61,307 nucleotides of DNA from Bacillota bacterium (GCA_023416695.1 JAEZGY010000064.1:1-61307), one strand, 5' to 3'; shown: positions 26,584 through 29,093, counted from the stretch's first letter. Notes: generated from the sequence alone by a model not told the origin. Program-made: numbers and translations.

Positions 26584-27168
26584 ATGAATACAGGTAAAGT
26601 GGCAAAACTAATACGAACGATAACCTTAGCGCCTATTATGGCGCTATTGGCATTGACTGTTTTATTTAATTATACAGAAGATGTGTTTGGTAATACCTAT
26701 GAATATGTAATGGCAGTGTTTTTCTTGGTTATATTACCAATACTAGCATATCCACTGCAACCTCTAATTCCTTCTTATAAATCTAAGGGACGAGATGGTC
26801 AGAGACAATTGGCCATTGTAATGGCTGTCATTGGGTATATGGGAGGAATTACAGTTGCTCTTATAACTTCAGTTCCAGTAAAATTAAAGGTTATATACTT
26901 TACTTATTTTATTTCAGGTGTCTTAATCTTGGTGTTTAATAAGTTATTAAAGGTAAAAGCTAGTGGACATGCTTGTGGTGTTGTTGGGCCTATGGCAATT
27001 TTGGTATATTGTTTAGGGCCATGGGCTTTATTAGGGATACTGATTCTTTTTTTAGTATACTGGGCATCACTGAAGATGGAAAGACATACTGTTTCTCAGT
27101 TATGCTTCGGTTCTGTCATTCCAGTAGCAGCTCTTTTTATCTCTTATGAAATGTATCATATGGGCTAA
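26584..27168 (+). CDS. Small polytopic membrane protein, function unknown
   Basis: 194 aa, 4-5 TM segments. Convergent with the RT gene, overlapping its 3' end by 32 nt. Confidence 0.45.
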   Translation: MNTGKVAKLIRTITLAPIMALLALTVLFNYTEDVFGNTYEYVMAVFFLVILPILAYPLQPLIPSYKSKGRDGQRQLAIVMAVIGYMGGITVALITSVPVKLKVIYFTYFISGVLILVFNKLLKVKASGHACGVVGPMAILVYCLGPWALLGILILFLVYWASLKMERHTVSQLCFGSVIPVAALFISYEMYHMG

Positions 27169-28369
27169 TATTTTGGGATTCTTTAAAATATTCATTTACT
27201 AGACTTTTATAGCCCCATGCTTTTAACTCGTCATAGGAGATACGATAATTGCCTTTATAATGTCGTCCTGTGATTGTATAACGAATGTATTCCTGCATAT
27301 AAAGATCAATTTCATGAAGCCCTGTGCTGACAGTAAGATGAGGAAAAAACCAACGGTTCCAGGTAAACTCATCCTCTCCACCACTGCCATAGAACTTACG
27401 ATTCATGGCATTGATGAAGCCTATTGCAGCCTTATCAGGAGAAAGGTTTTTGCGCATTTGCCATAGTCTAAGTGCATTAGCCTTTCTTTTTATTTTCGCT
27501 TTTATTTTTCTTTTTGTCACGTCTGACAAATCAATTGCTCCATTGTAATAGGTAAACCCAAGAAAGCTCCATGGTTCTCCAGGTGAGGTAATGGCTACCT
27601 TATCGGGGTTAATCTGAAGTTTTAGTTTTAACAGATGTTCTTCAAAAATGGCGATGTAACTCTCTAGTTCTTCTTTTGTATCTGCAAAAAATAGAATATC
27701 ATCGGAATAACGAAAATACGGAATTTGTTTTTCAGCAAAGTAGTCATCTACTTTCTTAAGGTAGATATTAGCAAAAAAGGGGGAGATTGGTGTGCCAGCC
27801 ATTGCACCATGATGATCTATACAGACCTTTCCATTAACAGTAACACGGTCTTCCTTAAGAATATGAAAAAATAGGTTATACAGAGCCTCATCCCTCTCTT
27901 TTAGGAAACTTAACGAAGAGAGCAACTCATCAATATCGATGCTATTAAAGTAGTTATGTATATCAGCTTTATAGCAATATTTTTTACTAAAGGAGGTATT
28001 GTTTTTAAAATGTACCATGGCATTCCGAATTCCATAAAAGCGGCGAAAGGCGTAGCAGTTAGGACTTAACACATCATTATATACATAAAGCTGATGAGCA
28101 ATGAATTTGAGAATGATATTATCTTCTTTTTCAAAGGAGTAGACAATTCGCTTTTTTCGTGTGCCTGTCTTATTAATAGTTAACTTTCTTGGAAGGGTAG
28201 AAGGAAACATAGCAGATTTTATAAGTCCATCATAATGAAGATAACGCTTGTTATTTATAAATGTTATAATCTCTTGTTCTTCCTGTCTACTCAAATGTTG
28301 AAGTTGTTGTTTGTCCGACAGAAAGGCTTCCCAGTATGTTTTATCTGTAATTGTATCTAAAATAGACAT
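27137..28369 (-). CDS. Reverse transcriptase (RT fingers/palm motifs 1-7 plus thumb-like C-terminal extension), retron-like, not a group II intron or DGR RT
   Basis: RT motifs 1-5 are KRIVY, NAMVH (retron-type NAxxH), CYKADIHNYFNSI, AGTPISPFFANIYL and YFRYSDDILFF. Motifs 6/7 are INPDKV and SFLGF. A lysine-rich helix (KRKIKAKIKRKANALRL) and a GF..MNRKFYG motif follow. Strong AAGGAGG RBS. Confidence 0.85.
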   Translation of the reverse strand: MSILDTITDKTYWEAFLSDKQQLQHLSRQEEQEIITFINNKRYLHYDGLIKSAMFPSTLPRKLTINKTGTRKKRIVYSFEKEDNIILKFIAHQLYVYNDVLSPNCYAFRRFYGIRNAMVHFKNNTSFSKKYCYKADIHNYFNSIDIDELLSSLSFLKERDEALYNLFFHILKEDRVTVNGKVCIDHHGAMAGTPISPFFANIYLKKVDDYFAEKQIPYFRYSDDILFFADTKEELESYIAIFEEHLLKLKLQINPDKVAITSPGEPWSFLGFTYYNGAIDLSDVTKRKIKAKIKRKANALRLWQMRKNLSPDKAAIGFINAMNRKFYGSGGEDEFTWNRWFFPHLTVSTGLHEIDLYMQEYIRYTITGRHYKGNYRISYDELKAWGYKSLVNEYFKESQNISPYDTFHKR

Positions 28370-28407
28370 AGGTACCTCCTTTTTATCCTTTTAAAAAAGG
28401 ACATAAA

Positions 28408-28546
28408 AAAAGAAAGAGAAAGTGCTTTGAAGTGCAAAAGCTATGCTTTGCATACTAGACTGAACATGTCCCGGTTACCCGTAAAACCTCTTTAGAACAT
28501 GCTTCATCCTTCACGGGTACAGCGTTGCTGCATTTCTCTTTCTTTT
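28408..28546 (-). ncRNA. Candidate RT-associated structured ncRNA: a 111-nt core flanked by a perfect 14-bp inverted repeat (a1/a2-like)
   Basis: The repeat arms are AAAAGAAAGAGAAA (28408-28421) and its exact reverse complement TTTCTCTTTCTTTT (28533-28546). Internal hairpins include TACCCGT/ACGGGTA and TGCAAAGC-ata-GCTTTTGCA. No ORF. The segment ends 38 nt before the RT start. Confidence 0.35.
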
Positions 28547-28565
28547 AAACAATATTATATATTTC

Positions 28566-29093
28566 TTAGCCAAAGATGTTCTGGCGTAGTCGGTTACTAA
28601 TATAAGATGTCTCATTTGGTAAATGCGGCATGAAATTCATATATGGTACGAAAATATTTTCTGCAGCTTCTTTTGCAAGTAATACATCTTTACGTCTATA
28701 GTCATTACGATTCCTCATGAGCATAATAAAGGCACGAGGCTTTCCTGAATCATCCAATAACACATAGGAAAAATTACGAGCGTTTGGTTGGTTTGCGAAT
28801 TCACTAGGAGAAACCTCTTTGCGAACAGTAAATTCACCATACTCAGTGGCAAAAATTTGCTCTAATTTTTGCTCTAGATTGCTATAAGCCGCCTTATACT
28901 TATGGTCCACTTTAGGTTGGTTATATGTAGTAGATTTTCTTGCGGCGTTTGGACTAGATGAGTCAGTAGTAGTATAACTATAGCTTTGGGAAGAACTGTT
29001 CGAGTCATTATTTATAACCTTTCCAACTTTTTCTACTAAATCTGCAGCACTATCCACATTCAATGTTTTTAGAATTTTATCAAAAAACCCCAT
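28566..29093 (-). CDS. Hypothetical 175-aa protein (S/T-rich linker plus a C-terminal domain that looks conserved); first gene of the RT locus
   Basis: GGAGGG RBS and its own promoter. No TM segments and no family I recognise. Confidence 0.5.
   Translation of the reverse strand: MGFFDKILKTLNVDSAADLVEKVGKVINNDSNSSSQSYSYTTTDSSSPNAARKSTTYNQPKVDHKYKAAYSNLEQKLEQIFATEYGEFTVRKEVSPSEFANQPNARNFSYVLLDDSGKPRAFIMLMRNRNDYRRKDVLLAKEAAENIFVPYMNFMPHLPNETSYISNRLRQNIFG

Follow-up and report, generated by a model that had tools for sequence, protein, structure and literature searches.

DRT2 assembles a gene, DRT9 makes poly-dA and DRT10 makes telomerase-like repeats. All three are built on Class 2 UG reverse transcriptases (RTs), and the members of this class characterised so far all iteratively reverse-transcribe a short non-coding RNA (ncRNA) template (PMC12632851). 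DRT2, DRT9 and DRT10 bind an ncRNA adjacent to the RT and prime from a serine or tyrosine of the protein or from the RNA 3' end, and for DRT10 the template has to be single-stranded and to follow directly 3' of a stable stem, SL5 (PMC12632851). UG26 is a further Class 2 group of the UG/Abi RTs, for which Mestre et al. (2022, NAR, PMC9226505) described 35 members, 9/35 of them beside a COG2852/Vsr-like protein, and reported no ncRNA. RT-5 is one of 19 'RT' motifs that lie near RT genes; Weinberg et al. (2017, NAR, PMC5737381) assigned it no RT class or function and speculated about a role in retrons. Here we describe a cassette from a Bacillota bacterium (GCA_023416695.1 JAEZGY010000064.1:1-61307) in which a UG26 RT, an RT-5 RNA and a small accessory protein are encoded together on the minus strand, at 27137-29150 of a 61-kb stretch of DNA. 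We call this whole stretch of 61,307 nucleotides the window. Full-text literature searches returned no paper linking RT-5 to UG26 and none characterising UG26.

A UG26 reverse transcriptase beside an RT-5 RNA

In minus-strand order the cassette consists of promoter-like sites, a GGAGGG ribosome-binding site (RBS), an open reading frame (ORF) of 175 amino acids (aa), a spacer of 196 nt and a 410-aa ORF preceded by AAGGAGG. We found both ORFs where an earlier note on this DNA had placed them. The three main parts are:

28566-29093, minus strand: 175-aa accessory ORF (ORF call), made of an N-terminal peptide, a linker and a Vsr/DUF559-like domain
28401-28549, minus strand: full structured ncRNA, RT-5 extended by a closing helix (covariance model R1, 136.6 bits, E 5e-27)
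27137-28369, minus strand: 410-aa reverse transcriptase of group UG26 (PADLOC RT_UG26, Pfam RVT_1), with YSDD at residues 221-224

The 410-aa protein is a reverse transcriptase. Pfam RVT_1 matched it with an E-value of 2e-24, as the sole Pfam family above cutoff, and the motifs 1-7 and YSDD that the earlier note had read in it are invariant among its relatives. Profile placement of the RT gave PADLOC RT_UG26 (E 1.1e-154, 513 bits) over residues 1-399 and positions 1-397 of the 398 in the model, far ahead of the retron, DRT and group II models. The next PADLOC models, generic RT (1e-33), UG4 (5e-33) and UG27 (2e-31), were about 120 orders of magnitude weaker. No NCBIfam model reached its cutoff: the group II RT/maturase model TIGR04416 scored 110 bits against 300, retron St85 71.5 against 235 and Drt2 NF041746 52 against 390. 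The RT carries no fused known domain, a Class 2 trait, and its AlphaFold2 model is a confident, single RT-like body (pLDDT 91.2). High conservation extends over some 100 aa at the C-terminus up to EY(Y/F), and a short basic tail of variable sequence comes after it.

When the RT model was searched with Foldseek, the nearest structures were the group II RTs GsI-IIC (TM-score 0.74) and G2L4, followed by DRT9 (0.60) and DRT2 (0.58). The class of this RT is set by its profile; the fold by itself does not classify it. The GsI-IIC superposition, the best over the full length, is one of three observations that would suit a degenerate remnant of a group II intron, a diversity-generating retroelement (DGR) or a CRISPR-associated RT. 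The others are a PADLOC Cas1_IIIb match (E 5e-27), which aligns to residues 62-289 only, and the public names of UG26 RTs (P0209, P0212, P0220), which read 'group II intron reverse transcriptase domain-containing protein' or 'reverse transcriptase/maturase family protein'. Tests have already refuted such an origin, and we regard its probability as practically nil. There is no intron RNA family in the window nor, at E<=10, around the locus; there is no pair of template and variable repeats (TR/VR), the direct repeats in 22000-35000 being an ABC-signature motif and chance 30-mers only; and no Cas genes occur among the window neighbours. The RNA, moreover, flanks the RT on a single side, as one compact element of about 140 nt. 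The earlier note had likewise set aside a group II intron, a DGR and a link to Cas1, and on all three it was right. No intron RNA is present, and the group II intron label that UG26 RTs carry in databases is misleading.

The spacer between the two ORFs holds the RNA. We found that Rfam RF03026, the RT-5 RNA, matches its core at 28419-28522 with 56.4 bits against a gathering threshold of 45.7 (E 1.4e-9) and over the full model, positions 1-104. The match lies 49 nt upstream of the RT start, and RT-5 is the sole Rfam family in the entire window. The system had first been put forward as undescribed. That part of the proposal falls, as the RT is a full-length UG26 enzyme (PMC9226505) and the RNA is Rfam RT-5 (PMC5737381): both families are already catalogued, and the locus is a new member of the catalogued UG26 group. 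We are almost certain that the locus is a UG26 RT with an RT-5 RNA and not a retron. It shares with published UG26 (PMC9226505) the size of about 400 aa, the lack of a fused domain and a Vsr-like (COG2852) partner, which fits the fold that we found for the accessory. It differs from the published picture of 35 members, an accessory in 9/35 and no ncRNA in that the family here is larger, the ncRNA near-universal and the accessory present in about 88%.

These proportions come from about 90 related loci. Scanning one genome per species yielded 11 loci, with RT identities of 42-58%, from metagenome-assembled genomes of Lachnospiraceae, Acetatifactor and Oscillospiraceae. RT-5 lay just upstream of the RT at the Rfam threshold in 9/9 of the full-length genome loci, and in 8/9 a same-strand ORF of 129-182 aa lay just upstream of the RNA, starting with MGF (MGL in one). 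A metagenome scan gave 461 relatives, of which the best 80, from gut, rumen and termite-gut samples, were kept. We searched for the RNA with a covariance model of the extended RNA in loci with more than 200 nt upstream, and for the accessory with a family hidden Markov model (HMM) in loci with more than 900 nt upstream. The RNA was found upstream of the RT in 84/86 loci, at a median distance of 22 nt from the RT start. The accessory was found upstream of the RNA in 61/69 loci (about 88%), never on the opposite strand and with a gap of 7-138 nt between its end and the RNA. In the other eight the RNA directly follows unrelated housekeeping genes, so RNA plus RT also occur as a minimal form. The same three parts recur, in a different context again, in GCA_965317705.1, the closest relative that has a named record. 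No fourth conserved gene or mobility gene was found, and no other family recurs in more than 7 loci. The three parts, small protein, ncRNA and RT, are conserved together as a genuine unit, as the earlier note had supposed of its three-part layout.

The wider RT family counts 2328 clusters at E<=1e-20, though other RT groups may account for some of the weaker ones; the 120 matches listed all score at least 492 bits. Among 2.9 million viral contigs we found no close relative, only matches of 24-26% identity, and a phage origin was rejected on that ground.

Departures from the common arrangement were noted among the related loci (numbered with an L). In L012 (1352-4001) the accessory and RNA lie about 2.5 kb from the RT, and between them are a 123-aa ORF, by eye a possible Fur-family regulator, and an unannotated 678-aa ORF; this stretch is either a real insertion or a chimeric co-assembly. 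L086 carries on its minus strand (1318-1490) a full RT-5-like RNA, inverted and just past the RT stop, whose own RT and accessory are absent from the short contig; this is an orphan copy or else an artefact of assembly. In the accessory-less L008 a 450-aa ORF with the P-loop GKNGSGKT (6353-7702, plus strand) lies just downstream of the RT and could be an alternative partner.

Structure of the extended RNA

The spacer contains a perfect 14-nt inverted repeat, 28408-28421 and 28533-28546, with 111 nt between its arms, just as the earlier note had described. The segment folds at -44.1 kcal/mol (z = -2.99 against shuffles). We derived helices P0 to P3 with RNAalifold from nine sequences and added a pseudoknot afterwards. 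The parts, from 5' to 3' in the RNA, are:

28533-28546, minus strand: P0 5' arm, all-purine, AAAAGAAAGAGAAA (inverted repeat and covariation)
28519-28531, minus strand: P1, small hairpin GCAGCA-A-CGCUGU; 6/6 pairs with compensatory change
28513-28518, minus strand: pseudoknot 5' strand ACCCGU, pairing with ACGGGU at 28477-28482
28457-28509, minus strand: P2, long interrupted hairpin whose apical loop (28477-28484) holds the pseudoknot 3' strand ACGGGU; near-invariant AGC and GU...C motifs
28432-28452, minus strand: P3 hairpin, variable in sequence, 7/7 pairs covarying; candidate 5' template-boundary stem
28422-28431, minus strand: single-stranded junction UUCAAAGCAC, a near-invariant (U)UCAAA and then 3-5 variable nt; may be the template or a segment recognised by the RT
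28408-28421, minus strand: P0 3' arm, all-pyrimidine, UUUCUCUUUCUUUU, followed by a U-rich tail (inverted repeat and covariation)

Covariation was measured in 79 distinct homologous sequences, with column shuffles and slid alignments as controls. We found that the combined structure is 93.6% paired, compared with 72.5% in column shuffles and about 48% in slid controls, and that 47/51 pairs show compensatory change. P0 is 96.2% paired, with compensatory change in 13/14 pairs, and the pseudoknot 99.1% paired, with compensatory change in 5/6. The alignment was fitted to the nested structure, which favours nested pairs; the pseudoknot lies outside that model, and the slid controls are far lower. 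G-U pairs are frequent and one is near-invariant (75/77 sequences with letters there), which places the fold on the RT-sense strand. Rfam RT-5 (PMC5737381) shares the hairpin architecture, and its model has unpaired ends. To it the extended RNA adds a covarying closing helix of at least 14 bp, the P1 hairpin and the 6-bp pseudoknot.

Two further features of the RNA are constrained. The 5' arm of P0 is 95% purine and the 3' arm 97% pyrimidine (77 distinct sequences; alignment A6, columns 4-17 and 318-331), and P0 covaries almost only between A-U and G-C, whereas P3 freely flips the orientation of its pairs. This strand asymmetry is not explained by pairing alone. Between P3 and the 3' arm the junction keeps a fixed length, 10-12 nt, and consists of (U)UCAAA and 3-5 variable bases.

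It was the inverted repeat directly upstream of the RT that had suggested a retron-like a1/a2 layout to the earlier note. The covarying closing helix bears out this layout, and it is the one real resemblance to retrons. The locus might then be a miniature retron, with P0 as a1/a2, P1 and P2 as msr and P3 with the junction as a very short msd, in which a 2'-OH-primed, branched multicopy single-stranded DNA (msDNA) would restrain an accessory toxin. Beyond the topology, such a reading could draw on the conserved part of the RNA being 5' and the variable P3 being 3', beside the 3' arm; on the G that follows the 5' arm past one unpaired base in 71/79 sequences; on the tripartite logic of RT, ncRNA and effector, typical of retrons; and on the retron role speculated by Weinberg et al. 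(PMC5737381). The RT, however, falls outside the retron profiles: PADLOC retron RT models gave 1e-15 to 1e-18 against 1e-154 for UG26, St85 stayed far short of its cutoff, and retron RT structures superpose on the core alone, with TM-scores of 0.40-0.47 compared with 0.58-0.74 for DRT2, DRT9 and the group II RTs. The retron-type NAxxH motif pointed out in the earlier note is indeed present in the window RT as IRNAMVH, but its relatives have KDAIER, KSAIKR or RDAIRR and only the alanine (A117) is kept, so the motif is a coincidence of the window sequence. At the position of the retron VTG the window RT has FLGF, a departure that the note had itself recorded. The G that might serve as branch point takes part in P1 pairing, and 8/79 sequences have A or U in its place; the msd would measure only about 30 nt, and the accessory gene, upstream in position, is missing from about 10% of loci. 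Retron membership was rejected on the RT profiles, the motifs and the non-universal branching G, and we hold the miniature retron to be very unlikely.

The position of the RNA relative to the RT start raises another alternative. In a large subgroup of loci (L048 3987-4001, L052, L080, L031, L035, L081 and others) the RT start codon lies 5-12 nt past the 3' arm without a Shine-Dalgarno (SD) sequence, and a crude search found an SD-like motif before the RT in only 21/75 loci. Since the start codon follows the arm so closely without an SD, P0 must compete with initiation of RT translation, and in this subgroup RNA folding and initiation look mutually exclusive from the sequence. The RNA may then be a cis-regulatory leader that controls RT translation or read-through, with the RT synthesising DNA untemplated, as in Class 1 Abi/DRT systems. 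The purine arm looks like an SD-rich sequence and the pyrimidine arm like an anti-SD, and a U-run follows the helix in AT-rich members, though it is absent in GC-rich ones. What speaks against a leader is a fold too elaborate for an attenuator, with its pseudoknot and invariant single-stranded motifs, and an RNA sequence better conserved than the accessory protein. The window RT, unlike the SD-less subgroup, has its own AAGGAGG and keeps the full RNA despite this strong RBS 40 nt downstream. A consensus scan found no intrinsic terminator after the RNA, and every studied Class 2 UG RT templates on an ncRNA. This makes a leader quite unlikely.

Between RNA and RT, one subclade (L071 at about 3900-4000, L074, L079, L085, L075 and L089) carries GC-rich GGGAC(A/T)(C/T)GGGAC repeats and their reverse complements, which may represent either an additional hairpin domain or a small repeat element.

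DRT10 (UG17, PMC12632851) has several points in common with the cassette, and UG17 is one of the closer PADLOC relatives of the RT. It too is tripartite, with a Class 2 RT of similar size, an ncRNA and a small effector; as in telomerase RNAs, its RNA core combines a closing helix with a pseudoknot; a stable stem-loop is followed right at its 3' side by a short single-stranded segment; and a conserved tyrosine lies near the RT C-terminus. It differs in its RT group, in its SLATT membrane effector as opposed to the soluble Vsr-fold accessory here, and in its poorly conserved template loops, where the junction here is nearly invariant. Membership in DRT10 was rejected, as RT_UG17 gave a partial match (E 1e-28, residues 126-394 only) and the accessory has no PADLOC match and a Vsr-like fold instead of SLATT.

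DRT2 (UG2) and DRT9 (UG28) resemble the cassette in having an ncRNA upstream of a Class 2 RT, essential in those systems, and the DRT2 ncRNA is pseudoknotted, as is the RNA here. Both lack an accessory protein, unlike the cassette. The RT belongs to neither system: for DRT2 the NF041746 score is far below its cutoff, and for DRT9 the profile match is 1e-20 against 1e-154 for UG26, no poly-U template loop is conserved and the U-run after P0 is missing in GC-rich members. Frames without a stop cross the RNA in 52/77 sequences in sense (38.9 +/- 3.8 expected) and 45/77 in antisense (33.2 +/- 4.1). A DRT2-like never-ending ORF is, in its simple form, not supported, because the enrichment is only mild, the sequences are mutually related and some members are stopped in all six frames.

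Accessory protein, transcription signals and neighbouring genes

The accessory protein begins with a conserved MGF(L/F)D.L(L/F)K, of which M1, G2, F3, L4, D5 and L7 are almost invariant, continues with a disordered, hypervariable, low-complexity linker (about residues 11-58) and ends in a conserved domain (64-175). Sequence searches found no family for it in Pfam, NCBIfam or PADLOC and no match in PDB sequences; a weak 'Ribonuclease' match (E 0.0075) was discarded as below cutoff and within the disordered linker. To this extent it has, as the earlier note had it, no recognisable family. That description does not extend to structure: at this level domain 64-175 has a Vsr/DUF559-like PD-(D/E)XK fold with an alpha-beta-beta-beta-alpha-beta core. 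The canonical catalytic positions are not kept, as only 44% of members have an acidic residue at the beta2 position and beta3 reads MIMIL, a hydrophobic stretch. The conserved residues are R76, E78, E89, R91, Y110, Y113, Y132, H157, N160, R161, Y164 and R168. From this pattern we infer that the C-terminal domain would bind nucleic acid and not cleave it.

A profile search enlarged the accessory family to 130 clusters, and an exhaustive HMM search found 501 representatives at 50% identity, all of them standalone proteins of 76-248 aa. The window accessory is 23% identical to its L001 homologue, compared with 56% for the RTs of the same pair. Judged from these sequences, the accessory diverges about twice as fast as the RT, which is typical of conflict genes. 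In L077 (91-804) two copies of the accessory domain stand in tandem, and in L051, L062, L085, L088 and L083 the accessory is in two HMM pieces; this suggests frameshifts, pseudogenes or sequencing errors.

The signals around the genes were read as follows:

29174-29202, minus strand: alternative promoter-like TTGTCA-17-TATAAT, 11/12 matches
29122-29150, minus strand: promoter-like TTTACT-17-TATAAT with TG-extended -10, 10/12 matches; candidate operon promoter upstream of the accessory gene
29099-29104, minus strand: GGAGGG RBS of the accessory ORF, read in the sequence, ending 5 nt before the ATG at 29093
28554-28559, minus strand: TATAAT, a -10-like hexamer 7 nt upstream of the closing helix with a poor -35; possible internal ncRNA promoter
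28373-28383, minus strand: AAGGAGG RBS of the RT, read in the sequence, within AAAAAGGAGGTACCTATG

Both RBSs and the TTTACT-17-TATAAT site agree with the earlier note. The region holds 14 promoter-like sites compared with 10.6 +/- 3.1 in shuffles; as this is no excess, the promoters are suggestions only, with a function inferred. The TATAAT upstream of the RNA is not kept in all loci. At the same position two accessory-less loci have a canonical promoter, TTGACA-16-TATAAT in L008 and TTGACA-17-TAAAAT in L056. In accessory-less loci the promoter ends 7-9 nt before the 5' arm, so that the helix closes the extreme 5' end of the transcript. The accessory stop lies only 7-15 nt from the RNA in many of the three-gene loci, which implies co-transcription.

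The cassette is the sole minus-strand gene pair within a plus-strand run of about 34 kb, and its GC content matches that of the flanks. Its neighbours in the window encode an AI-2E transporter, two ABC exporters, two unannotated small proteins, MoxR, DUF58, a transglutaminase-like protein and DUF3877. The MoxR (AAA_3), DUF58 and transglutaminase-like block (30038-34598, plus strand) lies directly beside the cassette and has no PADLOC defence annotation. On the other side a 194-aa hydrophobic, unannotated ORF without a Pfam match (26584-27168, plus strand) runs towards the RT and shares 32 nt with its 3' end. A perfect TTGACA-17-TATAAT at 29196-29224 on the plus strand faces a 211-aa lipoprotein-like ORF and overlaps the minus-strand TTGTCA-17-TATAAT (29202-29174); from their sequence, these back-to-back promoter-like sites at 29174-29224 look like a divergent promoter region. 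In the flanks of other loci we noted a T-box leader (L006, 7342-7587) and a c-di-GMP-I riboswitch (L009, 9177-9262), apparently unrelated to the cassette.

Proposed mechanism and meaning

By analogy with the studied Class 2 systems, the cassette may carry out RNA-templated cDNA synthesis in the service of defence, a proposal for which we see the chances as finely balanced. Combined with the UG26 and RT-5 identity it is the best explanation overall, and we lean modestly towards it. Transcription of the cassette would start at the promoter ahead of the accessory gene and perhaps, in addition, at a weak promoter immediately before the RNA. The RT would bind the RT-5 RNA encoded next to it as a ribonucleoprotein and would copy a short segment of this RNA into DNA, as DRT2, DRT9 and DRT10 do, probably repetitively and probably with a protein primer, for which Y394/Y395 of the RT are candidates. 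The junction at 28422-28431, after P3, is the best candidate template, with P3 as its putative boundary stem by analogy with DRT10 SL5 (PMC12632851). The accessory would bind the nucleic-acid product, or may act as sensor or effector through its conserved N-terminal amphipathic peptide, and the outcome would probably be phage protection by growth arrest or by a sequestered phage factor. In many relatives, where P0 overlaps the ribosome-binding region of the RT, RNA folding or particle assembly probably limits RT translation as well.

A more specific version is conceivable, though we think it doubtful: a telomerase-like RNA core, made up of the closing helix, the pseudoknot and a short invariant template behind a boundary hairpin, would direct synthesis of defined short-repeat DNA, and the dead Vsr-fold protein would read this DNA and trigger a response through its N-terminal peptide, making a fourth distinct Class 2 immune type. 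The product in the window would then be repeats complementary to UUCAAAGCAC, and the purine/pyrimidine P0 could serve template realignment, RNase H resistance or control of RT translation.

Several observations weigh against templated synthesis for defence. In an A-B-A' check of the template, the junction reads (U)UCAAA-N3-5 and the 3' arm starts with (U)UUC or UCC, giving a 2-3-nt A/A' match in nearly all members. The sequences would allow such a repeat, but the '(U)UC...(U)UC' match is expected from the pyrimidine composition of the 3' arm alone, and the template assignment is not discriminating. As about 10% of loci lack the accessory, it is not obligatory. The defence association of UG26 was rated 'inconclusive' by Mestre et al. 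(PMC9226505), who predicted UG4 and UG27, its nearest PADLOC relatives after UG26, to be non-defence. No defence genes flank the locus among the annotated neighbours in the window, where PADLOC matched two ATPase-type models only, mad3 and mad8, to the two ABC exporters. A census of 150 non-redundant neighbours from 31 diverse loci likewise showed no enrichment: 16 PADLOC models matched at most about 8 proteins, 3 of them the mad3 ATPase, and the remaining neighbours were housekeeping genes. The earlier note's small inserted defence island does not hold up against this census, and a lone insert in variable sites describes the cassette better than a defence island does.

The lack of a defence-island association and the ratings by Mestre et al. 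(PMC9226505) would also suit a non-immune cassette, either a selfish or addiction element or one engaged in housekeeping DNA or RNA metabolism as proposed for UG4 and UG27, and the many different housekeeping contexts with no mobility gene fit it as well. Set against this are the fast-evolving accessory with its hypervariable linker, the patchy single-copy presence typical of defence cassettes and the finding that tested Class 2 UG systems with ncRNAs are all antiviral. The lack of close relatives in viral contigs also sets the family apart from the phage-borne UG27. We consider a non-immune role unlikely.

Compared with the searchable literature, four aspects appear to be new. One is the link between UG26 and RT-5, and another is the extended fold of the RNA, which includes a pseudoknot, a closing helix of purine and pyrimidine arms and the fixed UUCAAA junction. 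The third is the accessory family, near-universal, its Vsr fold disabled and its N-terminal peptide invariant, and the fourth is the much larger size of the UG26 family.

Each Class 2 UG/Abi RT so far has revealed a different and unexpected way of writing DNA from a dedicated RNA. UG26 was among the groups left unresolved in the 2022 census and now has a concrete anatomy that includes a candidate template, and the database names that call its members group II intron RT domain proteins are corrected. A specialist would not be surprised by an ncRNA and a partner protein for a Class 2 UG RT; the cassette is still a clean, compact candidate for the next DNA-writing mechanism. Clostridia of gut, rumen and termite gut carry the family in abundance. 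If the cassette makes DNA, it could supply a compact RNA-programmed DNA-writing enzyme of about 400 aa and would extend the link between bacterial defence RTs and telomerase-type templating.

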